A stretch of DNA of 64,000 bases from an uncultured Gammaproteobacteria bacterium. Its GTDB lineage: Bacteria; Patescibacteriota; Patescibacteriia; UBA11705; JABHMO01. The notes below the pieces were generated by a model, which saw only the letters and a program-made list of their open reading frames with translations, was not told where the DNA came from and ran no database searches. Positions within the stretch are counted from its first letter, which is position 1. Each line of letters opens with the position of its first letter. The translations under genes and the position numbers were made by a program. The stretch covers positions 19,015 to 83,014 of the forward strand of contig CAZPYM010000005.1 of assembly GCA_964590105.1 (NCBI GenBank), read 5' to 3'. Positions 4,160-39,201 of the stretch are shown piece after piece.

Positions 4160-4327
4160 CTAGATCCTCCATGTTGAAAAAGTACAAATCTGACTAACTA
4201 CAGAGTATATCAAATTTTTTAGAAAAAGTCAAGGGTTATTTTGGTGTTTATTGTAAATTTAGATAAATTGTTCGGATTAAATCGGTAAATTAACATGCAA
4301 ATTATAAGGAATTGAAGATGAATATTA

Positions 4328-5667: not shown

Positions 5668-5745
5668 ATTATGAATTATGACGTATGAATTGTGAATTAA
5701 GTTTAAAGACAAATTTACAAATATTATAAATAAGAAGAAAACATT

Positions 5746-6351
5746 ATGAAAAAGATTTATTTGCTGGCAAGTTTGATTCTAGTTTTTGGTTTAACCGCCT
5801 GCACAAGCGTTGCACCTGACCAGCCAAAAGTTGATTCGGAAAAAGTAAACATTGAAAAGGAAGTTAAAAAAGCAACAACCGAAGCCGATACAGTTGAAAA
5901 TGACGGCCTTGAACAAGTCGAAACGCCAGAGTACGATTTGACCGGCTGGCGTGATTTTGAATCAAAGGTTGTTCCGGTGAAGTTTAAGTATCACAAAAAT
6001 TGGTATTACGGCCAAATCAAAACTGAAGCTGATTTCAAGTTGTACCGTTTTGCCGCGACTGAGGATGAGCTATCTGCGGAATATATCAATCCGGAAATAG
6101 CTGAGTATATTGAATTGTATATGTCTGAGGTGAATGCGGTGTCAGACGAATTTTTGACTGAGAATTCAGATAACCCAACTTATAACGAGAAAAAACTTTC
6201 AAATGGGGCAACTTTGGTTTCGGTTGACCTTGGTGATTATAAAACGTATCGTTTAGTGAAAGATAATCAAGCATTTGAATTCAGAGCTTACCAAGAGGAA
6301 CATAATGAGATTTTAGATAAGATGATTTCGACATTAAAATTTGTAGAGTAG
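5746..6351 (+). CDS. Lipoprotein, hypothetical
   Basis: Signal peptide with lipobox LTAC (MKKIYLLASLILVFGLTAC). Confidence 0.6.
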   Translation: MKKIYLLASLILVFGLTACTSVAPDQPKVDSEKVNIEKEVKKATTEADTVENDGLEQVETPEYDLTGWRDFESKVVPVKFKYHKNWYYGQIKTEADFKLYRFAATEDELSAEYINPEIAEYIELYMSEVNAVSDEFLTENSDNPTYNEKKLSNGATLVSVDLGDYKTYRLVKDNQAFEFRAYQEEHNEILDKMISTLKFVE

Positions 6352-6368
6352 CGAGTGGTGAATGATTT

Positions 6369-7625
6369 ATGCCAATAATTAAAATTGAAAAACTGGTAGC
6401 GGGCGGGCAGGGGCTGGCCAGACACGATGGCTGTGTTTATTTTGTCTGGGATGCATTGCCGGGAGAAGAAGTGGAAGTTGAAGTGATAAAAAAGAAAAAA
6501 AACTATGCTGAGGCTGTGGTCACAAAAGTTATTTCAGCTTCGCCCGAAAGAATAGAATCGCGGGAAGCGCATTATTTGAATTGCAGTCCTTGGCAGATTT
6601 TATCCTGGCCGGAAGAATTAAAGTGGAAAAAAATAATCGCCACGGAAAATTTTTTACGGCTGGCAAAGATTGAATTGCCGGCGGATTTGCAAATCGTGGC
6701 GGATAAAAAAAATCAATATCATTATCGCAATAAAATCGAATTCAATTTTATTTATTGCCGAAGCGAATTGCATTTGGCACTTTTTGAACGAAAAACCAAT
6801 GAGCTGCGACTTGTTGAGGAATGTTGCTTGGCGGATGAAAAGTTGAACGATGCGGCCAAAAATATTTTGGCGTGGCTGAATACGCGAGTTGATGCGAAAA
6901 ACTTTCAAAAGTTGGTAGTGCGAGGCGACAGCGGCGGCAGAATATTGGCAGGATTATATGCCAGGAATAAAATTAGTGATTTTATTTGTCCTTTGCTGGA
7001 CAAAACATTGGTTGGCGTGAGTTTTTTTCAGTGGAGCGGCGATGATAATTGGCGGTTGGAACGTCAATTGGGCGAAAATTATCTGGCGGAAACAATAAAT
7101 AACATAGAACTTCGCTATGGAATTGAAAGTTTTTTTCAGATAAACACGCTGATTTTCAAGATAGCTATTGACGACATGGCCGGATTCATTGATTCAAATG
7201 ACAGCGTACTTGATTTTTACTCGGGCGTCGGTTCAATCAGTCTCATGCTCGCCAAAAAGTTCAAAACTGGGCAATTGATCGAATCGAACGATGAAGCGGC
7301 AGGATTTGCCGAGCAAAATATTGAATTGAATAAAATTAAGAATTGCCGGGCGAAAAGAGTGAGAGCGGAAGAAGCCGCTGATTTGATCAGCGCAGAAAAC
7401 GTTGTGCTCCTGGATCCGCCGCGCGCCGGATTGGAGAAAATATTGACGGCGGAGATTATCAAGAAACAACCAAAGCGTTTAATTTATTTATCTTGCGATA
7501 TCGCCACGCAAGCGAGAGACATTGCGCAGTTAAAAGATTTTTATAATCTGGAGTTTATAAAATTGTATAACTTTTTCCCGCGCACGCCGCATATAGAAAG
7601 TTTAGTTATTCTAGATAAAATATGA
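6369..7625 (+). CDS. RNA (uracil-5)-methyltransferase, RlmD/TrmA family, with N-terminal TRAM domain
   Basis: TRAM-like N-terminus. The SAM motif DFYSGVGSISL, a LLDPPRAG-type motif and a C-terminal nucleophile region are present. Confidence 0.75.
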   Translation: MPIIKIEKLVAGGQGLARHDGCVYFVWDALPGEEVEVEVIKKKKNYAEAVVTKVISASPERIESREAHYLNCSPWQILSWPEELKWKKIIATENFLRLAKIELPADLQIVADKKNQYHYRNKIEFNFIYCRSELHLALFERKTNELRLVEECCLADEKLNDAAKNILAWLNTRVDAKNFQKLVVRGDSGGRILAGLYARNKISDFICPLLDKTLVGVSFFQWSGDDNWRLERQLGENYLAETINNIELRYGIESFFQINTLIFKIAIDDMAGFIDSNDSVLDFYSGVGSISLMLAKKFKTGQLIESNDEAAGFAEQNIELNKIKNCRAKRVRAEEAADLISAENVVLLDPPRAGLEKILTAEIIKKQPKRLIYLSCDIATQARDIAQLKDFYNLEFIKLYNFFPRTPHIESLVILDKI

Positions 7626-8047
7626 AAATTACTATTTGTAGCAGTTTGTCTTTTGTTGAGGATGTAATAAAAGTTCGAGATAAACTGGTTCAATGTGGCC
7701 ATGATGTTTTGTTGCCGGAATCTATGAATGAATGTATAGTTTTGGGGGTAAAAGATGCAAAAGCATACTCAAAAGAAAAGCAAGATCAAAGTGTTCAAAA
7801 TATTACTGATAAAATGCGTTTACATTTTGAAAAAATAAAAGATTCAGATGCAATTTTGGTTTTTAATCATTTTAAAAAGGAAGTTGAAAATTATATCGGT
7901 CCAAGCAGTTTTTTGGAAATGGGAATTGCTTTACATTACGGAAAGAAAATCTTTTTGTTAAACCCAATTCCAGATATGGGACTTAGGGATGAAGTTCATG
8001 CTATGCAGCCGGTAATTTTAAATGGAGATTTAAGTTTAATAAAATGA
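7622..8047 (+). CDS. Hypothetical protein (possibly nucleoside 2-deoxyribosyltransferase-like fold)
   Basis: ATGA overlap with the upstream gene and a 4-nt overlap with truB place it in an operon. Weak resemblance only. Confidence 0.35.
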   Translation: MKITICSSLSFVEDVIKVRDKLVQCGHDVLLPESMNECIVLGVKDAKAYSKEKQDQSVQNITDKMRLHFEKIKDSDAILVFNHFKKEVENYIGPSSFLEMGIALHYGKKIFLLNPIPDMGLRDEVHAMQPVILNGDLSLIK

Positions 8048-8685
8048 AACTTGAAGGAATAGTTACAATCAATAAACCAAAAGGACCGACTTCGCATGAT
8101 ATTGTCGATCAGGTTAGGAGGTTAACCGGCGAAAGGCGCGTCGGGCACGCGGGAACGCTCGACCCCCTGGCAAGCGGTGTTTTAGTTGTCGCTATTGGAA
8201 GAGAAAATACAAAAAAAATAAACGAAATTGTGAAAACCGAGAAAGAATATGTTGCCAAGATTAAATTAGGTGAAACGAGCAATACTGATGATGAAGAAGG
8301 AGAAAAAGTTAAAATTTTGAATGTAAAAGGTAAAAGTATTGAAGACATAAAACAAATATTTGGTGGTTTTGTAGGAGAAATTAAACAGGTGCCGCCGGTG
8401 TTCAGCGCTATTAAATTAAAAGGCAAAAAATCATATGAGTTGGCGAGAAAAGGAAAGGCGGTTGCGCTCGAACCAAGAAAAGTTTTAATAAAGCAAATTG
8501 AACTTCTTGAGTATGAATGGCCCTACTTGGAAATTAAAGTTGTTTGCGGGCCTGGTGTTTATATTCGCGCTCTGGCCAGAGATATTGGCGAAAAATTGAA
8601 AACTGGGGCATATTTGGCAGAGCTGCAAAGAACCCGAGTCGGTGATTATACGATAGAACAGGCGATTGACTTGGATAAAATATAA
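8044..8685 (+). CDS. truB: tRNA pseudouridine(55) synthase
   Basis: GPTSHDIV and HAGTLDPLASGVLVV catalytic Asp motif. Confidence 0.9.
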   Translation: MKLEGIVTINKPKGPTSHDIVDQVRRLTGERRVGHAGTLDPLASGVLVVAIGRENTKKINEIVKTEKEYVAKIKLGETSNTDDEEGEKVKILNVKGKSIEDIKQIFGGFVGEIKQVPPVFSAIKLKGKKSYELARKGKAVALEPRKVLIKQIELLEYEWPYLEIKVVCGPGVYIRALARDIGEKLKTGAYLAELQRTRVGDYTIEQAIDLDKI

Positions 8686-8751
8686 TTAACACCTAAAATT
8701 TAAGTTAATTGCTATTTTGGTGTATAATATAAAGGAACTAAAATTCATTTT

Positions 8752-11346
8752 ATGGTAATAGATAAACAGGCTAAAATCATTTTTGATGAAGAGACGGCAA
8801 TGCTGGACCAGCCACAGGGAGAAGGAAGAGAGGCGCTTGACCGCGAACAAGGGGCAGATGAAGCCGTTGAAAAAGCAGCAGAAAGAATGAGAGAACTATC
8901 ACGGCCGGAAACATGGGAAAGAGAAATACAAGAAAACCTGGAACAAGCAGGGCGAGACTTGGAATTTGCAAAAACTTCATTGCAGGCAAGAGTCGGCGTA
9001 GCGGAAGCAACCGGTGAATTGCTGGGTGCAAAAGTGTCAGCAGAAGAAATTGCCGAAGCGCAGGAAAAAATGCAGCAAGTGCGGCAGGCTTTGGAAAAAA
9101 TCAAAGCCATGGATCTGCGGCAGGTATCGCGAAGCGCGGCCGAAGGCATCAAGCAATTTGTGAAGGATAATATGCTAACCCTGAGCCCGCTTTTGATTGG
9201 CCCATTGGCCGCTCTGACCGGCGGTAGTGTTGGCATTGCTGTTCAGGCCTCACTTGAATTGACCGCCGGTATGTACGCGCTGGATAAAGTTTTGGATCGG
9301 TTGATGGATAGCGCTGAAGAAATTATTCCGCCGCAGTATTTCGTGGCTCTGGTGGCCGGCACGACCAATCTGGCAGAACTTGGCACCTCACAGGCCGCGG
9401 CTTTTGCCGGCGATTCGATATCAGAAGTGGCTTCTACGCCACTCGGGAGCAATCCGACTAACTTATATCTGACTGGCTTTGCTTTAATGTCGGCAATGAA
9501 AAAAAGGGCGGTGGCAGAAGGAATTATTCAGCCGGGAGAAAAATTGGGTTTATTAAATATTAAAAAAGTGCTTAAAAGTATAGACTGGAAAAGTGTAAAA
9601 GAACAAGGGGGATCTGCTTCTCTATTTGCGCTTGATGCTTTGATTTTCCAATTTTATGTGCGGCCGGAAATGAAAAAAGCTAATTTTATTCCATTTGCCG
9701 CCTGGTCGGCGATTAATGCGCCAATCATGTTTGAATATTTTCGCCGTACAACTTTTTCGCGCGAATCTCAGGTTGGAAATTATGCGGAAAGCATTGGCGA
9801 AGTCCAGTCAGCACAATTACAACAGGTGATGTTTGAAAATCAGGAGGGAGCCAGTTGCTTGTTTGAATTATTGGAATCGATCCAGTTGTACAAAGGGACA
9901 GAGGATAAAAAAGAAAGAAAAGAGCTGCTGGCAAAGTTGCGCTCATTGACCAAAAATTTGCAAACAAGAGTAGAAGGTGACGGTAATTTTCGTCGAGCAG
10001 TCCAGACTGCGACAGCCGGAGCTTCAATGGAAGATGTACAAAAATTTTTAAAAATCGCCGGTGTCGGAGAAAAGATGGATGTGCTACTTGGAGTTGACGA
10101 AGCGCAAATTAATGAGGCGACTGAGGCAGGATTGAGATTGGGTGAAAATCCCAAACATGCTGATGCCAGCCGCGCCTTTATCGGTATTATCAGCGTGTTG
10201 GAAAGTTATAAAACGGCCAAAACTAAGGAACAGAAACAAAAAGCAAAGGAAAAACTGGAACAAGCATATTATGAGTTAGATATAGAAATGCAGTGGGATG
10301 AGGAATTTGCCGTTGCAGTGGAGAATTCACTGGCCGATGAAAAACTTCAGGACGTGAAAAAAGCTATTGATTATTTGAAAACCGGCAAACAAAGCGATGA
10401 CAGCATATTTGAAAAAATTGATAATCTGGGTGTTTTGCAGATACGCAATTTGCAAAAATTTGCGCAGATTACTGAAGTTCGTTCGCGGGACAGGGTGGAA
10501 AAAATTCAGCCCTTTGTTGCGGTTATGTCGCAAATAGCTGCTTTTCGGCGAGCCAAGAATGAGTCAAGAAAAAAAGATTTACTTTATGATATTAAATTAA
10601 AGCTTGATCACCTAGAGCGGCGAGGCGATTTGGATGAAGATTTTGCCGTCGTTAAGGAGCAGTTATTAGCGGCTGAAGAAATGGCGGAAATTCGCGAGCT
10701 GATAAAATTAAGAGCAACCGGCAATGAATTGGAGGACAAATTAACGGCCGGAGATTTCAAAGATGCTTCCTTTGCTTTATCGCGGCATCAGGAAGTGCAC
10801 GCAGAGCTCGCGCCAAAGATCGGCGAGCTGGCGGAAGCAATTCAAACACTGCATGGTTTAAAAGGCGAAGAAAAAATTCCCGAGGTAGAAAGAACTTTAC
10901 GCAGTCAGATAAAGGATGTTTTGTCAGAGCTTGGGAAAAAAATGCAGGAAGCGGAAATAGTTGAACAGGAAATGGGGAAAATACTTGCGGTTGGCGGCGG
11001 CGAACCGGTAAAAAATTTAATTGAGATGAATTTGGCGCGCCAGAAAAAAATAAAAAATGTTGCAACAATTGCCGGCGGCATAGCGGCGCTTATGGGATTG
11101 TCGGTTGTTTTAGATAAAGGGGTGACGCACATGGCTGAATCAGTAGACTGGCTTGGTAAAGGAGCGGCCGGGTTTTTTATTATGTCGTTTTTAACCAGCG
11201 TAGGTGAATTTTTAACGACGAAAAAATTCTTCCAGCGTGGCGAGGACAGAGCGGCAGTAAAAAATATTGCTGACAGCAATGCCATTAATATCGGGCTGGC
11301 CAAATGCGCTGTTGCCTCGAGCGCCATTCGTAGCTTATTTGTTTAA
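8752..11346 (+). CDS. Large coiled-coil protein (864 aa) with C-terminal transmembrane helices, hypothetical
   Basis: Glu/Lys/Ala-rich heptad-like sequence. C-terminal hydrophobic segments IAGGIAALMGLSVVL and FFIMSFLTSVGEFL. GC is modestly elevated. Confidence 0.5.
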   Translation: MVIDKQAKIIFDEETAMLDQPQGEGREALDREQGADEAVEKAAERMRELSRPETWEREIQENLEQAGRDLEFAKTSLQARVGVAEATGELLGAKVSAEEIAEAQEKMQQVRQALEKIKAMDLRQVSRSAAEGIKQFVKDNMLTLSPLLIGPLAALTGGSVGIAVQASLELTAGMYALDKVLDRLMDSAEEIIPPQYFVALVAGTTNLAELGTSQAAAFAGDSISEVASTPLGSNPTNLYLTGFALMSAMKKRAVAEGIIQPGEKLGLLNIKKVLKSIDWKSVKEQGGSASLFALDALIFQFYVRPEMKKANFIPFAAWSAINAPIMFEYFRRTTFSRESQVGNYAESIGEVQSAQLQQVMFENQEGASCLFELLESIQLYKGTEDKKERKELLAKLRSLTKNLQTRVEGDGNFRRAVQTATAGASMEDVQKFLKIAGVGEKMDVLLGVDEAQINEATEAGLRLGENPKHADASRAFIGIISVLESYKTAKTKEQKQKAKEKLEQAYYELDIEMQWDEEFAVAVENSLADEKLQDVKKAIDYLKTGKQSDDSIFEKIDNLGVLQIRNLQKFAQITEVRSRDRVEKIQPFVAVMSQIAAFRRAKNESRKKDLLYDIKLKLDHLERRGDLDEDFAVVKEQLLAAEEMAEIRELIKLRATGNELEDKLTAGDFKDASFALSRHQEVHAELAPKIGELAEAIQTLHGLKGEEKIPEVERTLRSQIKDVLSELGKKMQEAEIVEQEMGKILAVGGGEPVKNLIEMNLARQKKIKNVATIAGGIAALMGLSVVLDKGVTHMAESVDWLGKGAAGFFIMSFLTSVGEFLTTKKFFQRGEDRAAVKNIADSNAINIGLAKCAVASSAIRSLFV

Positions 11347-11352
11347 AAAAAT

Positions 11353-11727
11353 ATGAATCAAAATAAAATATTGGGACAATTCATTGATTATAAAAATGAT
11401 GAACACACCAGGTTTGTTGAACTCCTGCAGGATTCGATAAGTTTTAGCGCCCGCGAAAAAGCGTTTATGATTATTGATTTTCACAGATATAATCAAATTC
11501 AAAAGCAAAAGTTGGTCAAGGCGTTGGAATCAGACCGCCGGCTGATCAAGGATTTGGAGCATGAATATCCGGAAGAATACGCGCAAAGAGAAATAAGGTC
11601 GAAAAAGGCCTGGATTTTTATGCTGGAAAGATTAGCTGAATATATTCAGGAGCAAAAAACTCGGCAAGCAAAAAAGTTTGATTATGAAGAATTGATGAAA
11701 CTGCGGCAGAAGCTGGATCAGGATTGA
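11353..11727 (+). CDS. Hypothetical protein
   Basis: ORF 7 nt downstream of the previous gene, so probably co-transcribed. Confidence 0.4.
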   Translation: MNQNKILGQFIDYKNDEHTRFVELLQDSISFSAREKAFMIIDFHRYNQIQKQKLVKALESDRRLIKDLEHEYPEEYAQREIRSKKAWIFMLERLAEYIQEQKTRQAKKFDYEELMKLRQKLDQD

Positions 11728-11747
11728 AGTCAAATAAATATTGTTTA

Positions 11748-11778
11748 TAATTTTAAAAACGTCCTTGCTATTGCTCGG
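11748..11778. terminator. Hairpin flanked by A-run and T-run between convergent genes
   Basis: aaaaacgtccttgctattgctcggatgttttt. Confidence 0.35.
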
Positions 11779-11854
11779 ATGTTTTTATAATTGCGCGCTA
11801 CCATGCTACACATCATGGGAGCGGAGCTTTCGATGGCAAATTAGCAAATAAAAA

Positions 11855-13084
11855 TTAATGGATTTTTCTGAGACTCCTCTGATAGTTGATGGCAAAGCGG
11901 TGCGCTTCGTCGCGTACTTGAATCAGAAGTTTTTTGTTTTGCAATATCCACGACTCAATTTTTTTATCAGTAATAAAGAATTCGTTTTTTTTGCGAGCCG
12001 GTCCCTTGGCAATGCCGATGATTGGAATGTTTAATTGAAAAGTTTTCAAAACAGCTTTTATCGCGCTGACTTGCGGCTTGCCGCCGTCAACCAGAAATAT
12101 GTCCGGCAATTGCCATTCTTTGTGATTTAAACGGCGTTCCAGCACTTCGGTAAGGCAGGTCACGTCGCTTTGGCCCTGAACAGTTTTAATTTTGAATTTT
12201 TTGTATTCAGATTTTATCGGTTCGCCATTGACAAAAGTTACCAGACTGCCGACTTTTCCGGTTGAACCAAGATTGGAAATATCATAGCCCTCGATTCGCG
12301 TAACGCGTAGCGTGGAACGCGTAGCGCCGGAATGATAAAAAAATGATTTATTAAGGAGCGCGGTATCGTGAATTTTTTTTAGGGCGAGGACTTGATCTCG
12401 CAGGCGAGAGGCTTGTTCAAAGTTTTCCTGCTTGGAAAATTTTTTCATTTGTTTTTCCAATCCTTTGATAACCTGTTTCTTTTTCCCTGATAAAAATAAT
12501 GATAAAGGCCGAATAATTTTTTGATTGTATTCTCTGGAAATAATTTCGCCGGTGCAGACTCCCTGACACTGTCCGAGCTGATAATAAAAGCAGGCTTTGC
12601 CGCTGTCTGGTTTGCAGGTCGAGAAATGAAAAAGTTTTCGCAAAAGTTTCAGTGTTTCTTTTGTGTTTAATCCCGGAAACGGCCCCCAGATTTTTGAATT
12701 ATTAATTATGAGTTTTGTATTAATTAGTTCGTGCTGGCGGATGCTTTTTAACTGCGGGAATTTGTCCTTCGTTAAATATAAATAATTCCAGCTTTTGTCA
12801 TCTTTGCCTAGAACATTATATTTTGGTTGATGTTTTTTTATGTAGTTTGCTTCCAAAATGATCGCTTCCAAAACCGAATCAGTTTTAATCCATTTGATAT
12901 TACTCACTTCGTGTATAAATGTCTCAATCGGCCGAGGCGATTTTTGTCCGGTGAAATAACTTTTGATTCTTGATTTTAAATTTGTAGCCTTGCCGACGTA
13001 AATCAAAACCTTTTTGGCATTATAAAAAATATATATACCCGGAGAGTTGGGTGCTGATTGGATTTTATGACTTATCGCGGACAT
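11855..13084 (-). CDS. uvrC: Excinuclease ABC subunit C (short form: GIY-YIG plus UvrBC-interaction plus RNaseH-like endonuclease, no C-terminal HhH)
   Basis: N-terminal GIY-YIG (PGIYIFYN...LIYVGKATNLKSRIKSYF). It is 409 aa, shorter than the canonical roughly 600 aa. Confidence 0.8.
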   Translation of the reverse strand: MSAISHKIQSAPNSPGIYIFYNAKKVLIYVGKATNLKSRIKSYFTGQKSPRPIETFIHEVSNIKWIKTDSVLEAIILEANYIKKHQPKYNVLGKDDKSWNYLYLTKDKFPQLKSIRQHELINTKLIINNSKIWGPFPGLNTKETLKLLRKLFHFSTCKPDSGKACFYYQLGQCQGVCTGEIISREYNQKIIRPLSLFLSGKKKQVIKGLEKQMKKFSKQENFEQASRLRDQVLALKKIHDTALLNKSFFYHSGATRSTLRVTRIEGYDISNLGSTGKVGSLVTFVNGEPIKSEYKKFKIKTVQGQSDVTCLTEVLERRLNHKEWQLPDIFLVDGGKPQVSAIKAVLKTFQLNIPIIGIAKGPARKKNEFFITDKKIESWILQNKKLLIQVRDEAHRFAINYQRSLRKIH

Positions 13085-13264
13085 ATTTAATTTTTACCTT
13101 ATAAATTTAGCCAAATATTGAGGTTAAACGTTAATAATTTAGCAAAAAAATAACTAAAATGCAATAGAGGTAGAGTCTTAAATCAGTAGAAAATTGCAGA
13201 AATTCGAATAGTTTTATGATAAACCAGTTGGTTTAAATTGTTAAAATTAGTTAAAAAATAGCTA

Positions 13265-13291
13265 TTGACATTTTAATAGTTTTGATATAAT
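13265..13291 (+). promoter_or_regulatory. Sigma70-like promoter for the JAB-E1-Ubl operon
   Basis: TTGACA (13265..13270), a 15-nt spacer with TG, then TATAAT (13286..13291). It lies about 95 nt upstream of the ATG at 13383. Confidence 0.45.
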
Positions 13292-13382
13292 ATAAATTGT
13301 TCTTTGGACTTTGAAAATATAATATAGTTATTATTTGTTTGGGATTTTTTATCGGGCAAGTATAATCGCAAGGAGGATATCA

Positions 13383-14204
13383 ATGAAAGGAAAAAAATTC
13401 CCAGAGCAGCCTGTCGTCAGAACAAGTCATCGGCACAGTGGGCCGGTGAATGTCGGGCCAAGGGTGTACTGGAGCGTGCGCCAGAAATTCACGCCGCATG
13501 AGTTTGGACCGCAAATCAGCCTTTCCGGTAGCATGCCGGAAGTCTTGATTGTGCCGGAAGCCTTGGCAAAAATGTATGCCTATATCTGCGCCGCCGGCAG
13601 TGATGAAATCAGCTGGCTCGGTACGGTGGAAGATCGCGGCAACAAATATATCATCAAAGAGATATTTCTTGTTGAACAGACTGTCAACGGCGTGGAAACG
13701 GAAATGACCGCAGAGGGAATGGCGGAGCTGTCAGAAGAATTCATGGCTCGTCCGGATGGAGAAACTGTGTGGAAAGAAACTCGCTTTTGGGGACATTTTC
13801 ATCCGTTTTCCGATGCCGGACCGTCCGCTCATGATGAGCGCCAATTGCACGAATTTCTTAATTCCGGGCATGAGTTTTTCCTGCGCGGCATTTGCAGCGC
13901 AAATGGAATAATCCAGTTTACGTTATACTTGATTAACCGCGGAATCATCATTACCGATGTTCCGTGGTCGTTGAACATTGAGGATAACGATGAATTGCGG
14001 CAGCGTACTCTCGCTGAAGTTAAAGAAAAGGTGCGCAAGCGCATTGTTGAGACCGTCAGAGTGATGGGTGGCGGTCACTCCGCTATTGGTAATCCGCCAT
14101 ATGGCCGGACATGTACCAGAAGAGAAGTTGATAATGCGATTGAAAGCTTTAACCAGGAGGGGAGGAATCATGGGCCGAGCGACGACGACCAGCTTGAAGA
14201 ATAA
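13383..14204 (+). CDS. JAMM/JAB (MPN+) metalloprotease domain protein
   Basis: Exact JAMM motif HFHPFSDAGPSAHD (HxHx7Sx2D) with an upstream conserved Glu (DEISWLGTVE). RBS AAGGAGG sits 6 nt upstream of the ATG. Confidence 0.75.
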   Translation: MKGKKFPEQPVVRTSHRHSGPVNVGPRVYWSVRQKFTPHEFGPQISLSGSMPEVLIVPEALAKMYAYICAAGSDEISWLGTVEDRGNKYIIKEIFLVEQTVNGVETEMTAEGMAELSEEFMARPDGETVWKETRFWGHFHPFSDAGPSAHDERQLHEFLNSGHEFFLRGICSANGIIQFTLYLINRGIIITDVPWSLNIEDNDELRQRTLAEVKEKVRKRIVETVRVMGGGHSAIGNPPYGRTCTRREVDNAIESFNQEGRNHGPSDDDQLEE

Positions 14205-14916
14205 TAAAAAGCCGAAGGCACGGGTTCAGCCGCCGGTGGAAGCCGAACTGGATCTTGTTCGCCAGCTTTCAATATTTGATCCCACAAAATTCGCCGAAGA
14301 GCGTATTGACGTGATTGGCGTGGGCGCGGTCGGATCGCATGTGGCTTGGTTTTTGGCAAAAACAGGATTCAAAAACATTCATGTCTGGGACGACGACATT
14401 GTCGCCTCGCATAATGTTCCGAATCAGCAGTTTTTCCTTGACCAAGTCGGTCAAACAAAGGTTGCCGCGCTCGCTGAAAATATCATGCGCGCCACGGGCG
14501 TCATGGTTGCAATGCATCCGGTTAAATTCATCGGACAAGAAGGCCTGGGCAAACATGTTTTCCTGGGTGTTGACAGTATGGAAGCGCGCAAAAGCATCTT
14601 TGACTTGTCGATTAGAATGAAGCTCGGCATTGAAACAATGTTTGAGACTCGAATTGGGTCGGACATTTGCCGCATCTACCTTATTTCACCCATCAGCCCA
14701 GCGCAGATCAGAGGCTGGGAAGAAACACTGTATTTGGATAGCGAAGCGGAAGTTTCTCTTTGCGGTACTGTGCCGTCAATCATTACCACAAGTTCTCTGG
14801 CGGCCGCCGCTGCTGTATGGCAGTTCATCAAATGGCTGTCCAGTCGCGACGTGGAAAATGAGCTGGTCATTGGTTTTCGTCCGGCGTTCAATGTCTTGAC
14901 AAGAAAGTTCATTTGA
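14170..14916 (+). CDS. E1-like adenylyltransferase (ThiF/MoeB/HesA family)
   Basis: Rossmann motif IDVIGVGAVGSHVAWFLAKTG...HVWDDDIV. C-terminal SLCGTVPSIITTSSLAAAAAV aligns with the MoeB Cys-containing loop. RBS GGAGG is present. It overlaps the JAB gene by 35 nt. Confidence 0.75.
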   Translation: MGRATTTSLKNNKKPKARVQPPVEAELDLVRQLSIFDPTKFAEERIDVIGVGAVGSHVAWFLAKTGFKNIHVWDDDIVASHNVPNQQFFLDQVGQTKVAALAENIMRATGVMVAMHPVKFIGQEGLGKHVFLGVDSMEARKSIFDLSIRMKLGIETMFETRIGSDICRIYLISPISPAQIRGWEETLYLDSEAEVSLCGTVPSIITTSSLAAAAAVWQFIKWLSSRDVENELVIGFRPAFNVLTRKFI

Positions 14917-14975
14917 TGTAAAAGGAGAATAGATTATATCAAGTTTGTCCATTTTCCAATCACAGGAGGTGCAAA

Positions 14976-15188
14976 ATGGGAACTGCGCGCGTTGGGAAGT
15001 TGCCTGGACCGCCGTTCAAAGAGGTCGAATTCCGCGACGGAGACTCCGCGGCGGACGTCCTTAGGAATGCCGGTCTTTCAACCGACGGCGGCTATGAGTG
15101 CCGCGTGAATGGTTCGTCTGTTCCGCTGAACACGCGGATCAGACCGGGCGACCAGGTTCTGCTGGTCAAGAAAGTAAAGGGTCAGTAA
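14976..15188 (+). CDS. ThiS/MoaD-like beta-grasp ubiquitin-like protein with a non-canonical Gly-Gln C-terminus
   Basis: 70 aa. CRVNGSSVPLNTRIRPGDQVLLVKKVKGQ aligns with the ThiS C-terminus VNQQIV...DGDQILLFQVIAGG. RBS AGGAGG sits 6 nt upstream. Confidence 0.6.
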   Translation: MGTARVGKLPGPPFKEVEFRDGDSAADVLRNAGLSTDGGYECRVNGSSVPLNTRIRPGDQVLLVKKVKGQ

Positions 15189-15220
15189 GGCCACCTACTA
15201 GTATAAGGAATTAACAACAA

Positions 15221-15252
15221 AGAGCTATCCAGCATTGGCTAGCTCTTTTTTA
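15221..15252 (+). terminator. Rho-independent terminator after the Ubl gene
   Basis: agagctatcc-agcatt-ggctagctct stem followed by TTTTTT. Confidence 0.6.
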
Positions 15253-15266
15253 ATTAAAAAAAACAG

Positions 15267-15296
15267 GGGCGTTCCTTTATAAGGATCGCCCCCTTT
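15267..15296. terminator. Second strong hairpin with T-rich tracts on both sides, bidirectional
   Basis: ggggcgttcctt-tat-aaggatcgcccc, with AAAAAAAA upstream and TTTT downstream. Confidence 0.4.
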
Positions 15297-15594
15297 TCAC
15301 CGTGGCTGGTCAGTGGCAGTTAGCCGTTCATTGTTATCAGCCGCGTCTTGGCCGTTTACCCACGCTGGGGACTTGAGGCTGTCTTGACGCCGCAATGATT
15401 CAGAACGGTCTTTTTTGCCTGGTAGCGGGTCTGGCCGGAGCTCTGGCTGATCAGGCTTTTTTGCGACCCTACTGCTCCTCACAAAGGGCAATATGCGTCG
15501 CAAGCCGGATGAGTCATTGGCTTTCCTGCCCAGACTGGCTATGACCATTTGTTCCACGGTATTTAGATATTAGTATAAATAAAATTTTTGTCAA
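15297..15594 (-). other. Promoter-to-terminator unit of about 300 nt on the minus strand: a candidate small RNA or a low-complexity 86-aa ORF
   Basis: Minus-strand TTGACA (15589..15594), 16-nt spacer, TAATAT (15567..15572). It ends at the hairpin 15267..15296. The ORF 15297..15557 has a GTG start, no SD and an R/S/D-rich product. Confidence 0.25.
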
Positions 15595-15671
15595 GAGGGG
15601 TCGTGTCTATGGCGTATCCCAGCTTTTATAGCGGGTATTAAATATTTAGATAAAAACAAATAATATTAAAC

Positions 15672-15706
15672 AAAAAAGCATGCGAAATGGTTCGCACGCT
15701 TTGTTT
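15672..15706 (-). terminator. Rho-independent terminator for the minus-strand 410-aa gene
   Basis: Minus-strand RNA agcgugcgaa-ccau-uucgcaugcu followed by UUUUUU. Confidence 0.5.
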
Positions 15707-15720
15707 CTATTGGGAGGAAG

Positions 15721-16953
15721 CTATTCGGCTTCCTCGAATTCCTCGGCTACGCCGACAAGGCAGGTACCTCCTCCCTGTCTCGCGCCGCTCGAGCCGTCGT
15801 TGCGGCCGGAGAGCAGTTCATCCCACTTGATCTGCTGGCCCAACTGGAACAGCTGGGACAGGAACTTGTACTCGTTCGGTTCGTCCTTGCAGTTCGGCAG
15901 GAGCAGGATGGCAAGAGTGAATCTCGCGAGACTCTGTTCCAGGCGAACATCGTTCGCCGTTGCCGCCACGCCGAGGATCCGGAGCATCTCGTCCCTGGTC
16001 GTGGCCCCGATGGCCTGCGGCAGGTCCTTGTTGTCCAGGAGTTCCTTGATCTTCTTGGCTTCCGTGGCCATGGCGACTGCCACGGGCAGGCGCATGCCGC
16101 TGAAGAGCGTGTTGATGGCATCGTTGACCGCTTCGGCCGCGTCGTAGAGCATGCCGGTGTCGGGTGGGGTGACCAGGCCTTCCGGCATGGCCGTTCCGTC
16201 CGTCCGCTGGCTCAAGGCCACGGCCATGGCGAGCATCTGGTTTTCTCCCATGTCCGCGAGCCAGGCCTTCTTCCAGTCACGCATGGCGCGGTGGAAGTCG
16301 CGCAAGGCGACCCAGAGCACCATCTTGACGCGGTGGATCAGGTCGGTCTTCCGCCGCTTGGTCACGAATGCCGCTTCGATGTCCATGGCTTCGAGCACTT
16401 CCGCGTAGCGCTTCCTGCGAACCAGCTTGAGCAGGGAGTAGAACTCCTTGCCGCACGGTTCGCTGAGCTCGTCGGCTCGCTGAAGCATGAGGTCGACCAG
16501 CTTCTCCGGCACTTCGAAGAGTCCGAACTGGTCGGCGAGACCGGCGCGGTTGGCGAAGAGCACGGATACGGGCTGTTCGATCTTCAGCACGCCGCCCGCC
16601 TTGATGGTCTTCATGAAGGAATCGTCTTCCTTGACTTCCGGCAGAGCGTCGAAAGCGCCGACCAGGGCAACGGCCGTGCCGGCCGCTGTCGCGACCTGAG
16701 TACGGCCGCGCAGAACGGACGTGAACTGGCGCAGGAGCGCCACCGGAAGACCGAGACCGTCGTCGCAGAGCACCTTGCGCAGGTCGCCGAACGGCGTCAG
16801 ATTCTCGTCTCCCAGCATGTTCAGCGCGCCTTCGCTCGGCTCGCCGATGAGCGGCTTCAGCGCCGCGTCCAGTTGTTCCACCTTTTTGCCGGCCGCGCTG
16901 GCAAGCGCGCCCACTCGGTCATTCCATTTCTGCTTCCAAAGTTCTGTTTCCAT
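15721..16953 (-). CDS. Hypothetical alpha-helical protein (410 aa), extreme GC (about 62%)
   Basis: Long ORF with RBS AGGAGG 6 nt upstream of ATG (METELWKQKW). It has its own promoter and terminator. Its codon usage is foreign to the host. Confidence 0.55.
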   Translation of the reverse strand: METELWKQKWNDRVGALASAAGKKVEQLDAALKPLIGEPSEGALNMLGDENLTPFGDLRKVLCDDGLGLPVALLRQFTSVLRGRTQVATAAGTAVALVGAFDALPEVKEDDSFMKTIKAGGVLKIEQPVSVLFANRAGLADQFGLFEVPEKLVDLMLQRADELSEPCGKEFYSLLKLVRRKRYAEVLEAMDIEAAFVTKRRKTDLIHRVKMVLWVALRDFHRAMRDWKKAWLADMGENQMLAMAVALSQRTDGTAMPEGLVTPPDTGMLYDAAEAVNDAINTLFSGMRLPVAVAMATEAKKIKELLDNKDLPQAIGATTRDEMLRILGVAATANDVRLEQSLARFTLAILLLPNCKDEPNEYKFLSQLFQLGQQIKWDELLSGRNDGSSGARQGGGTCLVGVAEEFEEAE

Positions 16954-17040
16954 GGCACTCCTCCTGTTCACACACGCAACCGCACTGACCCGGCGGGTTA
17001 GGGCAGACCCAAAAGAGTCTGCGTAAAAAGAACCATTAAG

Positions 17041-17069
17041 ATATTAGCAATCCGTATAATTATTGTCAA
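17041..17069 (-). promoter_or_regulatory. Sigma70-like promoter on the minus strand for the 410-aa gene
   Basis: Minus-strand TTGACA (17064..17069 on plus), 17-nt spacer, TAATAT (17041..17046). Confidence 0.4.
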
Positions 17070-17133
17070 GGGGGCTTTTTTGGCTAATATTGCAGGACGA
17101 TATAGCTTGGTCTCATAATTAATATTCATCAAT

Positions 17134-17161
17134 TTGACAAAATTATTAATTGTGTTAATAT
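17134..17161 (+). promoter_or_regulatory. Sigma70-like promoter with extended -10 for the 600-aa gene
   Basis: TTGACA (17134..17139), 16-nt spacer, TGnTAATAT (17153..17161). Confidence 0.45.
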
Positions 17162-17197
17162 GGCACCTTTGTGTTCTTTACAAAAAGGGAGGTGGAA

Positions 17198-19000
17198 ATG
17201 GTCAGCGAAAATCAAGCGTATTTTTCCGACAGCCTGACGCAGGAGGCGATTCAGGCGTTGAAAACAGCCGGGCTGGTTATGGAGGAAAGGTTTGGCATTG
17301 CAGACGGCGTGACCGGCGTGCTGTTCGGCAAAGTCGGCGCGAATGAAGTTTTGATGAGCGTCGGCCTTGAAATTGTTTCAACGAAAAACAGTCTCTATGA
17401 TGGCATCAATTTCGTGGTGTTAAAAAAAGTTGGGCAAAAAACTGATCAGAATCAGCCAGGTCAGGTGCAGATTGAATTTGATAAAAACACGAACTGGGGT
17501 GATACGACAGGCTGGTTGAAACAGGCGGCGATGGATTATCTGGCGCCGATTTTAGCGCCGGAAATACAAAAGATAGTGTTTTATCATCATCACGATGACT
17601 TTGTGGAATTGTTTCGATATCAAAACCAGGATACGATATTTAGGGTTTTTTGGGGCCGTATTGCTGACGGCACAGAAGGAGTTGTGAAGATTGTGGAATG
17701 CGTATCGCTGGTTGGAAACAATATGTTTTTGTCCGGCGACAATGTGCGTTTGAGCGGATATAATGAAATGACGGAAAGAGTGCGCCGGGAGTTGAAATTA
17801 GCGACAGACCGGATGAAAAAGCCGGATTTTCAGCAATATGTTGAACTGCGGAAAAACGTTGTTGCGCATGGGCGTTTTTCATCCTCTGATAATTTTATTG
17901 ATGCAATCATTCAGAAATTGCTGAAAAAGTCATCGCTCATCAAGCGGGTGGAAATGCATTATGAAAAAACTGTTCAACCGGGAAAAGAGATGAAGGACAC
18001 TTTAGTCGTTTGTCTGTTCGCCGGATTGGGACAGAATCACGCTGCGTCCGTAAAGGTGCCGCAAAAAATTTTTGGCCGGGCAGTTTCATGCTTAAAGCAT
18101 TGCGGCCATATGTCATCTGAGATGGAAGAAGGCATCGTGTTCATGGATGGCGACTACGCGGTGGCTGAATTCATCGGCAACACCCTGTATGTGTTTCATC
18201 ATCTTGGTTGTCAGGGTGACAAACATGAAACGGAAATTTTCTGCCATCTGCTGGGACTGGTGGAGGGAGAGTTGACTAAGCCCGAAGAGCAGAAAGCGGT
18301 CGAGCGCGATGCAAGGCGCAGGGCGATTTTGGAAAGATCCCGAGAACAATATGCGGACATGTGCCGCGAGCGTTATAGAATAGAGGTGGAAAGCCTGCAA
18401 CGACTGGTAGGACAAATGAGTGAGCAGGCAGTTGAGTTTCGGAAAAAGTACATTGAGGCGGTGCGCGAGATGGAGTTTTCTGAGCAAAAATTGGTAGTTC
18501 TGTCGCAATCCGGAAAGCCGATTTTGGAAAAATACCGGGCGGAGTTCGATCAGATGACCGCATGGCCAAACGTAAGAATGGTTCAGACTGATAACCAAGG
18601 TATTTTGACGGTAATGACCGATGTTTTGTTCGCGACCGATCCGCGGAGCCAGAAAGTTCACGAAATAGGCGAATTCAAAATCGTCATCAATGTGAAAAAC
18701 GGTGACATTCGCTGGTACAATCAGACGCGTTTGGTTGTCGGCTATGATGGGATACAATTCAACGCGCCTCATGTAAGGGAAAACGGCGCTGCTTGCCTTG
18801 GTAACGCGTCCGGCCCGATCGCCGAGATGGTGGCGCGCCATGAATTCTCGGCGCTGGTGGCGCTGGCTATCCAGTTCGTTGAAACAGTAAATGTTGATCC
18901 GGGCGAGAATTGGGGACCGTTCATTGACAAATGGCCGACGGTGGGCGGACAGCCTGAAAAGGAGAAAAGAAAGCCGCCTAAGAAACGGACAAAGAAATAA
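17198..19000 (+). CDS. Hypothetical 600-aa protein; C-terminal ~130 aa show a UBC/E2-like signature (speculative)
   Basis: RBS GGGAGGTGG precedes ATG (MVSENQ). Near the C-terminus GYDGIQFNAPHVRENGAACLGN resembles the UBC HPN-loop plus catalytic Cys (compare FHPNINSNGSICLDIL). A helix ALVALAIQFV follows. The N-terminal region is His/Cys-rich. Confidence 0.55.
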   Translation: MVSENQAYFSDSLTQEAIQALKTAGLVMEERFGIADGVTGVLFGKVGANEVLMSVGLEIVSTKNSLYDGINFVVLKKVGQKTDQNQPGQVQIEFDKNTNWGDTTGWLKQAAMDYLAPILAPEIQKIVFYHHHDDFVELFRYQNQDTIFRVFWGRIADGTEGVVKIVECVSLVGNNMFLSGDNVRLSGYNEMTERVRRELKLATDRMKKPDFQQYVELRKNVVAHGRFSSSDNFIDAIIQKLLKKSSLIKRVEMHYEKTVQPGKEMKDTLVVCLFAGLGQNHAASVKVPQKIFGRAVSCLKHCGHMSSEMEEGIVFMDGDYAVAEFIGNTLYVFHHLGCQGDKHETEIFCHLLGLVEGELTKPEEQKAVERDARRRAILERSREQYADMCRERYRIEVESLQRLVGQMSEQAVEFRKKYIEAVREMEFSEQKLVVLSQSGKPILEKYRAEFDQMTAWPNVRMVQTDNQGILTVMTDVLFATDPRSQKVHEIGEFKIVINVKNGDIRWYNQTRLVVGYDGIQFNAPHVRENGAACLGNASGPIAEMVARHEFSALVALAIQFVETVNVDPGENWGPFIDKWPTVGGQPEKEKRKPPKKRTKK

Positions 19001-19005
19001 GACAA

Positions 19006-19036
19006 AAGCCGACTCGCAACGAGCCGGCTTTTTTAT
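19006..19036 (+). terminator. Rho-independent terminator after the 600-aa gene
   Basis: agccgactcg-caac-gagccggct followed by TTTTTT. Confidence 0.6.
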
Positions 19037-19072
19037 TTAGATTTTTGAATTTTATCAAAAATTTAAAATTAA

Positions 19073-21655
19073 TTATTTTATAACGCTTTTTAAATATTTT
19101 CCAGTCCAGCTATGCGCGTATCTGGCAATATCTTCCGGCGTGCCGACTTTCACGATTTCGCCGCCGCCGGTGCCGCCTTCTGGGCCGAGGTCAATGATCC
19201 AGTCAGCGCATTTTATCACGTCCAGATTGTGTTCAATTATCATGACAGTATTGCCTTGCGAAACCAGACGTTGAATTACTTCAAGTAATTTTCTAACATC
19301 ATCATAATGCAAGCCGACTGTTGGCTCATCCATCAGATACAGAGTTTTGGTTGTACTGCGCTTGGCCAGTTCGCGGCTCAATTTGATTCTCTGCGCTTCG
19401 CCACCGGAAAGAGTGGTGGCTGATTGGCCGAGAGTCAGATAATCCAGACCGACTTCATTCAGCATTTTAAATTTGTCGTAAACAAATGGCACGTCTCTAA
19501 AAAAATCTTTGGCCTGCTCAATGGTCATATTCAATACATCGGAAATGTTTTTTCCTTTGTAATGAACTTGCAGAGTTTCTTTATTAAATCTTTTGCCCTT
19601 GCAAATATCGCAGGTGACCTCGACGCTTGGTAGGAAATGCATTTCAATCTGCAAACGACCCCGACCCTCGCAATGTTCACAGCGGCCACCGGGACGATTG
19701 AAACTAAATCTGCCGACTTTGTAGCCGCGAATTCTAGCTTCTTGAGTGGAAGCAAAAATCTCACGGATATAATCAAATGCTTTGGTATAGGTCGCCGGAT
19801 TTGAGCGCGGAGTGCGGCCGATCGGGGATTGATCGATTTTTACTATTTTGTCTATATAATCTGTGCCGCTGATTGATTTGTGTTTGCCAACCCATTTATT
19901 CATTCTGAATTTTTTATTTTGAATCGCCCGATAGAGAATGTCGTGCATAAGGGTCGATTTTCCGGAGCCGGAAACGCCGGTCAGGCAAACCAGTCGGCGT
20001 AAAGGAATTTCTACAGTAATGTTTTTTAAATTATGTTCAGCCGCGCCGACTATTTTGATTATTGGCGTATTTTTGTCAACCTTGCGCCTTTGCGCTGGTA
20101 GGGGAATCATTAGTTCATTGCGTAAATATTTGCCGGTTAGGGAATCTTTTGCTGAGCCCTGAAGCGCGCAATCAAGCTCGGTTTTTGCCTGAACAATTTT
20201 GGTGTTCAAAATGTTATTCAACGGGCCGTTAAATACAATTTGTCCGCCATGAATTCCGGCGCTCGGTCCGATATCAACCAGCCAGTCACTGGCAAGAATC
20301 GTATTTTCATCATGCTCCACAATAATAATTGTGTTGCCGATATCGCAAAGGTCGCGTAGGGTGGAAACCAGCTGGTCATTGTCTTTTTGATGAAGTCCGA
20401 TTGTCGGCTCGTCCAGCACATAGAGCGCGCCGACCAGTTTGGTGCCAACCTGTGAAGCCAGTCTTATTCTTTGCGCCTCGCCGCCGGACATGGTGCCGGC
20501 GCGGCGATTTAGCGTCAGATAATGAAGGCCAACATTTAGCATGAATTCCAGGCGGTTTTTTATTTCATTCAGAACCACGCCGCTGATTTCCAGTTGTTTT
20601 GTGGTCAGCTTTTTATCCAGTTTAGAAAAAAAGTCAAAAGCCTCGGCAATGGTAAAGTCTGAAATCTGCCAAATATTTTTTTCGGCAATTTTGACGCTTA
20701 GCGCATTTTTATTCAGGCGTTTTCCTTCACACTTCGGACAGGGTTCATTACTGAATAATTCTTTTATCCCAAGTCCGGTGCAATAGTCGCAGTAGCCATA
20801 AGGGCTATTGAAACTGAAAAGCCGCGGTTCTATTTCCGGAAAGCTGTAGCCGTCATTAACGCAGGAGTATTCGGTGCTGAATATTTTTTCAGTTTTGTCG
20901 GGATAAATAATAGTGCAAAGCCCATTGGAAAGTTCGATCGCGTTTTCAACCGCTTCGGCAATTCTTTGCAAAACTGTGGGCGTATTATCAATCGCCGAAG
21001 CATTGAGCATGGTGATTTTGTCAACAACAACTTCAATGGTATGTTTGTCGTTTTTTGCCAGCAAAACGCGGTTTTTTAGTTGTTTAAATTTTCCGTCGAG
21101 ACGCGCTTCGGCAAAGCCATTATTATAAATATCATACAGGAGCTGGTGATATTCGCCCTTGCGTCCGCGGACGATTGGCGAGAGAATTTGCATTTCAGCT
21201 GGAGACAAAGTTTTTTCATTTTTAAATTTATTAATAATCCGGTCGACTATTTCATCTGAAGTTGTTTTTTCCATGATCGCTTCGCAAAGCGGGCAGTGCG
21301 GTTGGCCGATTTTGGCAAAAAGTACTCTTAAATAATCATATACTTCAGTAATAGTGGCGACGGTTGAGCGCGGATTGGCGCTGTGCGCTTTTTGATCAAT
21401 CGAAATGGCGGGGGACAGGCCGGTTATTTCGTCCACATTTGGTTTTTGCAGGCCGCCGAGAAATTGTCTGGCATATGACGACAAGCTTTCAATATATCTT
21501 CTCTGGCCTTCGGCAAAAATCGTATCAAAAGCCAGGCTGGATTTTCCTGATCCGGAAATGCCGGTAAACACGATCATTTTGTTGCGCGGAATTTCCAGAT
21601 TAATGTTTTTTAAATTATGTTCGCGCGCGCCTTTGATTGTGATTTTATTTTCCAT
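19073..21655 (-). CDS. uvrA: Excinuclease ABC subunit A
   Basis: [18 protein letters not shown]...[14 protein letters not shown]. Two ABC ATPase modules and Zn-finger Cys pairs are present. The start is refined to the MENK Met. Confidence 0.9.
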
Positions 21656-21783
21656 AAGTGTTACGGATGTACAGATTTGCAGGTACGGATTATGCAGATT
21701 CATTGGAGGAAATAGATAACAGGGGTTCACTTGAAATTATACGAAGCCATCGCTAATTCAGCCGCAATCTGTACTATCTGTAA

Positions 21784-39033: not shown

Positions 39034-39201
39034 GATTCCTCCATTTGTTGTTCGAAAAAAATACACAAACAAAAATATTTTACAGCAATAACTGAGATAA
39101 AGCAAGGCATTTATCCGGGTTGATTTTAAAGTATTTATTTGGTAAGATGTTCCTGTAACGCATAACGCGTAGCGTGTAACGCATAATGCATAATTTTTTC
39201 T

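Follow-up and report, generated by a model that had tools for sequence, protein, structure and literature searches.

Each of the CBASS Cap2/3, Bil and Bub systems, characterized only recently, has brought to light chemistry not seen before and a connection with how eukaryotic ubiquitination arose. Operons centered on prokaryotic ubiquitin-like proteins (Ubls) were classified by Iyer et al. in 2006 into rows 6a–6e (PMC1779556). Bil is an ISG15-like anti-phage ubiquitination system, of which Type I, BilABCD, is "6d"-like, and Type II corresponds to the CEHH or "6c" arrangement (PMC10557695; PMC11601596). Bub systems proceed via oxyester intermediates on Ser or Tyr without a catalytic Cys, and show Ubl–E2, JAB–E1 or E2–E1 fusions together with a DUF6527 serine protease (PMC11601596). 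Here, we describe an island at positions 13085–19072 of a 64,000-nucleotide stretch of contig CAZPYM010000005.1 (hereinafter the window), which encodes a set of proteins that does not match the CBASS, Bil, Bub or 6a–6e types. We consider it probable that the core of this island is a self-contained, horizontally acquired Ubl-conjugation module of four genes, coding respectively for a large protein that we term X, a JAB-domain peptidase, a minimal E1 and a Ubl.

Components and genomic linkage of the module

The island holds five intact genes and is bounded by two host genes: uvrC on the left (11855–13084, minus strand; with GIY-YIG, UVR and RNase H domains) and uvrA on the right (19073–21730, minus strand), with rlmN and uvrB lying farther to the right beyond uvrA. 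An earlier note on this DNA had read here a candidate novel Ubl-conjugation system, comprising a JAMM metalloprotease with an exact HxHx7Sx2D motif, a MoeB/ThiF-type E1 and a ThiS/MoaD-like beta-grasp protein, alongside two large proteins that it could not place. The five open reading frames (ORFs) are indeed found intact where it had put them, and the proposal as a whole is supported by the motifs, the fold model of X, the family-wide gene linkage and the insertion of the island. As for the two large proteins, one of them, the 600-aa X, no longer counts as unplaced, being E2-like by fold model and motif, whereas the other, of 410 aa, is still without an informative match. With the starts of all five genes corrected by their ribosome-binding sites (RBSs), the JAB gene (13383–14204, plus strand; 273 aa; ATG after the RBS AAGGAGG) overlaps by 35 nt the E1 gene (14170–14916, plus strand; 248 aa; RBS GGAGG), which is followed by the Ubl gene (14976–15188, plus strand; 70 aa), in keeping with the overlapping or tightly spaced operon proposed in that note. 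The gene for X occupies 17198–19000 on the plus strand. Independent gene callers gave the same five protein lengths on 14 other contigs with the same island, recovered from one population in at least six samples; five of the six island copies compared are 100% identical and the sixth has one mismatch.

An exhaustive HMMER profile search recovers 2316 representatives of the X family, clustered at 50% identity, at E <= 1e-3 and 482 at E <= 1e-30. A word-index search had made X appear to be an orphan with one homologue, a picture overturned by these matches. From the N-terminus, the protein comprises a variable region (residues 1 to ~270), a small alpha/beta domain that is conserved (~313–360), a long helical or coiled-coil region (~363–437), a UBC-like domain (~439–580) and a basic tail. 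Across the family, X proteins range from 400 to 1000 aa, and the N-terminal stretch before the C-terminal motif measures 127–997 residues with a median of ~390; that region of the window protein is nearly unique. The motif itself, A-P-H-V-x3-G-x-A-C-L-G-N, is the C-terminal signature of the family and was found in 140 of the 150 top matches. In an alignment of 141 sequences its Pro, Gly and Cys are invariant and its His nearly so, the Cys corresponding in the window to Cys533 within APHVRENGAACLGN (codon at 18794–18796, plus strand).

Several lines of evidence relate the C-terminal domain of X (18512–18937, plus strand) to E2 enzymes. The UBC/E2 fold consists of a helix, a four-stranded meander, a loop bearing the active Cys and C-terminal helices. 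The AlphaFold2 (AF2) model computed from the 141-sequence alignment, which replaced a run on a two-sequence alignment with a predicted local distance difference test score (pLDDT) of 46, has a pLDDT of 83 overall and above 90 in the C-terminal domain, where it displays a helix, a beta-meander, a Cys loop and three helices. The top-ranked Foldseek matches in the PDB, which are not significant, are UbcH7, UBC13, UbcH5B and Ube2W, and a fold search of BFVD returned uncharacterized phage proteins only. The spacing of the motif P-H-V-x3-G-x2-C-L equals that of the eukaryotic E2 HPN...C. When compared by hhalign with three human E2s, the X profile is collinear over 124–136 columns, placing Cys533 on the catalytic Cys85 of UBE2D2 (P ~1e-3) and P-H-V-x3-G-x2-C-L opposite the P-N-I-x3-G-x2-C-L of that enzyme, with His replacing Asn. 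Taken together with the genomic context, on which the assignment partly rests, this evidence makes it highly probable that X is E2-like, and its predicted active site is Cys533.

The JAB protein carries the JAMM zinc-site motif HFHPFSDAGPSAHD at 13794–13835 on the plus strand (residues 138–151), an exact HxHx7SxxD. In the family alignment, the Glu, both His, the Ser and the Asp of the Glu...HxHx7SxxD constellation are invariant, and the JAMM motif was found in 47 of 51 JAB relatives. The protein has no Pfam, NCBIfam or PDB sequence match and matches the JAB model of PADLOC weakly (E=0.007). It is predicted to serve both as the trimmer of the pro-Ubl and as a deconjugase.

The E1 consists of a single adenylation domain, with relatives of 219–260 aa, and scores 49.6 bits against Pfam ThiF (cut-off 28.1; E 3.6e-13), which upholds its earlier assignment to the MoeB/ThiF type. 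It has the sequence GVGAVG, and the residues that bind nucleotide and Mg, including G50/G52/G55, D74/D76, N82/N85/Q86, K97, D135 and R140 are invariant in 13 relatives. The same holds for an S-x-C-G motif, which is kept in 37 of 39 family members and whose Cys198 may, judging by this conservation, be a candidate Ubl-accepting cysteine. The relatives of the E1 family profile in the PDB are MccB (1.6e-10, the best), PaaA, ThiF, UBA5, UBA1/NAE and Cap2 (1.8e-7), with BubCD more distant (2e-5); ThiF is aligned across 186 residues. Among the models of PADLOC, those of Cap2 match the Rossmann region at ~1e-14, covering the E1 part only.

The Ubl is a ThiS/MoaD/SAMP-type beta-grasp protein. On its own it is borderline against Pfam ThiS (21.9 bits, cut-off 22.5; E 2.7e-4), and its family profile matches SAMP2 (2.4e-4), its best solved relative, as well as PF1061 and ThiS. 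Its Gly69 is invariant in the family, but penultimate: the window protein ends in ...VKKVKG-Q, and the near-uniform ends of its relatives read ...LLV(K/R)KI(K/R)G-N, some with one residue more, so that at least 90% of the family have Asn in the position following the Gly, where the window protein has Gln. Since these Ubls end in Gly-Asn or Gly-Gln, trimming by the JAB is implied. In Bil, the JAB protein BilC pre-processes the Ubl BilA (PMC10557695), and the masked Gly encoded beside a JAB in the island parallels that arrangement.

These four proteins are joined by their genomic linkage. The one homologue of X from the word-index search sits in an X–JAB–E1–Ubl operon on another contig, all four products of which are homologous to the window proteins at 33–42% identity. 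A search of viral and metagenome contigs for the conserved domain of X gave 79 loci; it used 12 trimmed C-terminal X segments, the 141-sequence alignment being too diverse for the purpose, and a word-index search with the same 12 segments returned just 12 fragments. Once redundancy was removed, 33 viral or metagenomic loci extended at least 2 kb past the last X gene; JAB and E1 are present in 30 of them and a detectable Ubl in 25, with the order almost always X–JAB–E1–Ubl. X is the signature of the family and is linked to JAB–E1–Ubl, and the X–JAB–E1–Ubl arrangement is apparently a large, new operon family.

The operon is subject to several kinds of variation: (i) the Ubl gene may lie upstream; (ii) the Ubl may have an N-terminal extension; (iii) two full modules may occur on one contig; (iv) X may form tandem arrays (L139, L142, L120 and L149), with up to six X genes in L139. 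Repeatedly, a long X with the Cys precedes a shorter paralogue without the His and the Cys (e.g., L118, L137, L138 and L154). The tandem arrays suggest diversification of the E2-like subunit.

Insertion, carriers and a probable role in conflict

The host of the island is, as judged from its uvrA sequence, a Magasanikbacteria/Kuenenbacteria-like member of the Patescibacteria: matches at 76–79% identity come from contigs labelled Kuenenbacteria, Patescibacteria group and Gammaproteobacteria, and those at 67–73% from contigs mostly labelled Magasanikbacteria, Parcubacteria or Gammaproteobacteria. Many contigs with a uvrA 68–79% identical to that of the window carry the title "uncultured Gammaproteobacteria bacterium" in third-party annotation (TPA) assemblies (L010, L016, L017, L019 and others), and these titles are probably a labelling artefact.

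When the uvrC–uvrA junction is compared in relatives, as the earlier note had advised, uvrA is followed by uvrC in ~45 of 80 fetched Patescibacteria loci, with a gap of 5 bp to 4.5 kb that holds unrelated ORFs, some of deviating GC (L046, L067 and L017). None of the five island genes occurs in any of the 80 loci. Since ~45 relatives thus keep uvrA–uvrC without the island genes, the island is an insertion of horizontally acquired DNA at a variable junction, and this junction may be an insertion hotspot in Magasanikbacteria-like Patescibacteria. The composition of the genes is consistent with this: the JAB, E1 and X genes have a GC of 48–50% and a third-position GC (GC3) of ~54%, the Ubl gene has a GC of 59% and the gene for the 410-aa protein, an outlier even among the island genes, has a GC of 63% and a GC3 of 83%. 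These values compare with 41.6% GC for the window and median gene values of 42.4% (GC) and 41.8% (GC3). Thus, the GC-anomalous island of the earlier note stands as regards its raised GC (48–63%), but the flanks are less AT-rich than the 35–40% GC it had given, uvrC being at 38.9% and uvrA at 44.0%.

The module is carried by both cells and viruses. On the cellular side, its neighborhoods feature RecG, an amidase, malic enzyme and PilM on a 742-kb contig; a P-type ATPase and a CCA-adding enzyme; or RecA, PGK and TIM, and the few named members of the X family come from Paceibacterota or Parcubacteria metagenome-assembled genomes. On the viral side, the carriers are IMG/VR contigs of 57–207 kb, where the module is accompanied by genes for a terminase, SbcCD-like proteins, topoisomerase II, RtcB, ThyX, and Apyc1-like and DatZ-like proteins. 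Given its movement between cells and large phages, its location in variable islands and the diversification of X in tandem arrays, the module most likely has a role in phage–host conflict, in either direction.

The direction of that conflict is where the strongest rival explanation lies. In it, the same machinery is a phage weapon that early in infection tags host proteins or shields the phage's own, and the window copy is a captured gene set or a remnant. The phage-type neighborhoods listed above speak for such a role, as do the match of the E1 to PHROG 15670, the PurZ-like gene and phage kinase that neighbor homologues of the 410-aa protein, and a module copy within an 8-kb block of a TGA-recoded 565-kb contig in which no TGA serves as a sense codon. 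Against it stand the several clearly cellular loci, and the window copy, at which there is no integrase, no att-like flanking direct repeat and no other phage gene, and which recurs in the same form in at least six samples of one population. Further, none of 50,697 deposited phage genomes gave a match when searched by tblastn with a typical X. On this balance we deem a phage weapon somewhat unlikely, though this reading shares its entire machinery with the one we prefer and departs from it solely in which way the conflict runs.

Two loci deserve separate description. On a 207-kb viral contig (L092), an Apyc1-like (anti-Pycsar) metallo-beta-lactamase is encoded at 3714–4556 (plus strand), 3 kb upstream of the module, which suggests a counter-defense neighborhood. 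The 565-kb contig (Ga0194052_1000001; L002) uses TGA as a sense codon, its flanking genes having 2–14 in-frame TGA codons and almost no TGG. Its 8-kb block at 5234–12940, which combines the lack of in-frame TGA with normal TGG use, holds a PAN/Mpa-like coiled-coil AAA ATPase together with the X–JAB–E1–Ubl operon. This block may be an island of standard code within a recoded genome, or else hold the early genes of a recoded huge phage, and is a further sign of foreign or specially regulated DNA.

A predicted conjugation cascade and its alternatives

Briefly, we advance the following mechanism for the module. The JAMM peptidase would remove the residue after Gly69 of the 70-aa pro-Ubl, i.e., Gln in the window and Asn in most relatives. 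The 248-aa E1, probably acting as a ThiF/MoeB-like homodimer, would then adenylate Gly69 and may hold the Ubl on Cys198, from where it would be handed to X, at Cys533 of its UBC-like C-terminal domain. Functioning without an E3 partner, X might choose its targets by means of the coiled coil and the variable N-terminal region and attach the Ubl to them. Finally, the JAB could reverse the modification.

Several observations weigh against this reading. The E2 assignment of X draws on a structure prediction and on scores that are weak: with Foldseek, no E-value is better than 0.1, the probability given by hhalign against the human E2s is just 6–18%, and X matches neither Pfam UQ_con nor any solved E2 at the sequence level. 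Moreover, the Cys is missing from about a quarter of the members of the X family. The E1 is devoid of a ubiquitin-fold or other recognizable E2-docking domain, and the residue that follows the Gly is conserved as Asn or Gln, which would be unusual if it were simply a leaving group. Lastly, the literature we searched contains no description of an X–JAB–E1–Ubl operon type, and one may exist elsewhere.

An alternative with different chemistry is that these genes constitute a sulfur-carrier or small-molecule set of the ThiS–ThiF, MoaD–MoeB, CysO–Mec+ or QbsE–QbsD type, in which the JAB only unmasks the Gly and X is a biosynthetic enzyme. The Ubl and the E1 are closest in sequence to ThiS/SAMP and ThiF/MoeB, respectively, and JAB–Ubl–E1 triads are known from sulfur pathways (PMC1779556). 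The scores place both proteins well outside the curated families: the E1 reaches 64.6 bits against the NCBI ThiF equivalog (cut-off 159) and is far under the MoeB threshold too, and the Ubl reaches 23.8 bits against the ThiS equivalog (cut-off 80), so that they are not housekeeping versions, the reading that the earlier note had named as the one to exclude. There are no thiamine, molybdenum cofactor or cysteine biosynthesis genes adjoining the island, whose neighbors are uvrC, uvrA, rlmN and uvrB, and no rhodanese, cysteine desulfurase, ThiG, MoaE or CysM is present in the island or in the commonest flanking families of 19 other loci. With a constant partner, X, that has a UBC-like fold model and a Cys motif, and with the module being found in phages too, we hold a sulfur-carrier role to be improbable. 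Still more improbable is MccB- or Pup-like chemistry at the terminal Asn or Gln, i.e., a succinimide or adenylate, as known from the making of microcin C, or amide deamidation followed by ligation, that bypasses the Gly: the near-constant Asn and the top rank of MccB among the PDB matches of the E1 profile favor it, but the MccB match is limited to the common Rossmann part, the alignment with ThiF being the one that extends over 186 residues, the E1 has no MccB peptide-clamp domain, some Ubls have a further residue past the Asn, and the conserved JAB and the Cys-bearing, E2-like X would be left without an obvious role.

Returning to the conjugation cascade, we see evenly balanced chances that the module typifies a new Ubl-conjugation lineage of Patescibacteria and of the large phages that share their environments, in which the place of the E3 is taken by a giant E2 that has a coiled coil and, as a "receptor", a hypervariable N-terminal region, and that often occurs in tandem or with a Cys-less, UEV (ubiquitin E2 variant)-like copy, and in which the Asn of the Gly-Asn end has a function of its own. 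If so, it would add an extra branch to the bacterial ubiquitination-like systems, distinguished by its minimal E1 and by a Ubl whose Gly-Asn end is conserved. It would also provide an E2 that keeps the classical Pro/His–Cys signature, is joined to a coiled coil and a variable region for recognition, and has UEV-like paralogues. The X family is large, with over 2,300 representatives, and yet is invisible to Pfam, NCBIfam, PADLOC and the annotated PHROGs. To our knowledge, next to nothing has been described of the conflict biology of Patescibacteria and large uncultured phages. A system of four proteins is concrete enough for in vitro reconstitution.

Other features of the locus and relation to known systems

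Beyond the core module, the island contains the gene for the alpha-helical 410-aa protein (15721–16953, minus strand; ATG after the RBS AGGAGGAG) and a candidate structured RNA, which are its co-resident cargo. The 410-aa protein has no match in Pfam, PHROG or NCBIfam and no relative in IMG/VR, apart from which we noted a weak match to the phi29 head fibre (E=0.006). Six homologues were found: on a 3-kb contig (L009), one follows a Cys-less X paralogue; on the contigs L007/L008 294-4897 and JGI 3300071358, it is part of a conserved cluster of four genes, the others being a phage-type kinase-like gene, a gene with a possible vWA-like motif (recognized by eye) and a PurZ-like gene, i.e., a homologue of the adenylosuccinate synthetase of the 2-aminoadenine pathway. 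Since it is missing from the other 75+ modules, the 410-aa protein, which is rare and associated with phages, is an accessory or a passenger rather than a core component; a functional link to X is possible, in light of their divergent promoters and the adjacency in L009.

The candidate RNA, of ~300 nt (15255–15562, minus strand), lies between the Ubl gene and that for the 410-aa protein. Its minimum free energy according to RNAfold is -123.9 kcal/mol, compared to -93.9 +/- 5.5 in shuffles (z = -5.45). Its 5' and 3' ends pair with each other, and its terminator is a GGGGCG/CGCCCC hairpin followed by T8 (~15297–15262). An 86-aa ORF that starts with GTG, lacks an RBS and would yield a low-complexity product overlaps it. 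Rfam gave no match, nor did the 2 Mb of fetched loci contain a homologue.

The sigma70-like promoters predicted at three places were all recovered as promoter-like sites, along with a fourth, all sharing the hexamers TTGACA and TAATAT: (i) upstream of the JAB–E1–Ubl operon (13265–13293, plus strand; TTGACA-N17-TAATAT); (ii) upstream of X (17134–17161, plus strand; TTGACA-N16/17-TAATAT); (iii) upstream of the gene for the 410-aa protein (17069–17041, minus strand), divergent from that of X; (iv) upstream of the candidate RNA (15594–15567, minus strand; TTGACA-16-TAATAT). The region has 20 promoter-like sites as against 5.9 +/- 2.5 in shuffles. A hairpin search likewise returned all three of the intrinsic terminators that had been proposed: a hairpin and T-run closing the JAB–E1–Ubl operon (15216–15251), and two-way terminator hairpins of 12 pairs 3' of the 410-aa gene (15675–15702) and of 13 pairs between X and uvrA (19004–19032).

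Elsewhere in the window, raised GC is also seen in a 206-aa ORF without a Pfam match (3539–4159, minus strand; 57.6%), in a gene for a PNP_UDP_1 phosphorylase (38155–39105, minus strand; 50.7%) and in that for a 1732-aa surface protein with Big_5, PKD and PG_binding_1 domains (53082–58280, minus strand), where the GC is ~50% across 54–58 kb; by these further genes the genome looks mosaic. Just left of the uvrC neighborhood, an 864-aa protein is encoded (8752–11346, plus strand) by a gene whose GC rises locally to as much as 53%; the protein has a marginal C-terminal match to Na_Ca_ex (25.5 bits, cut-off 24.9), a sub-threshold match to PAP_NTPase and no further matches.

Turning to the described systems, X and the JAB have no sequence match to any solved structure. 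The module is like Bil in having separate genes for the Ubl, E2, JAB and E1, in lacking an E3, in the extension after the Gly of the Ubl, which the Bil JAB removes, and in its island location, Bil operons being placed in variable or defense islands. It differs in that the Bil E1 has a multidomain IAD–AAD–CYS architecture, whereas that of the island is one adenylation domain of 220–250 aa; in that the Bil E2 is small and stand-alone, whereas the E2-like domain here ends a coiled-coil protein of 400–1000 aa; and in gene order, which is Ubl–E2–DUB (deubiquitinase)–E1 in Bil and E2–DUB–E1–Ubl in the module. Further, the 6d E2s lack the classical His (PMC1779556), whereas X keeps the P-H motif.

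With Type II CBASS, the module shares the Rossmann region of its E1, which matches Cap2, and a JAB with a weak match to the PADLOC model; neither an E1–E2 fusion nor a CD-NTase is present, and the moiety to be conjugated would be a dedicated beta-grasp Ubl. To Bub (6E/DUF6527), it is comparable as a diverged bacterial E1/E2/Ubl pathway, with BubCD as a distant match of its E1 profile, but it keeps a Cys in both the E1 and X, and has neither fusions nor a DUF6527 match. The archaeal SAMP/UbaA/JAMM system offers the parallel of a single-domain E1 with a JAMM protease, and SAMP2 is the closest solved counterpart of the Ubl; however, sampylation operates without an E2 and SAMPs end in an exposed GG, whereas the module nearly always has an E2-like partner and its Gly is masked. 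Finally, Ubc13–Mms2, the eukaryotic pairing of an E2 with a UEV, differs in that X carries large extra domains, that the window has the active form only and that the bacterial pairing is read from the genes; the likeness resides in the tandem loci, which pair a Cys-bearing X with a shorter paralogue that keeps the fold signature while losing the Cys and the His.

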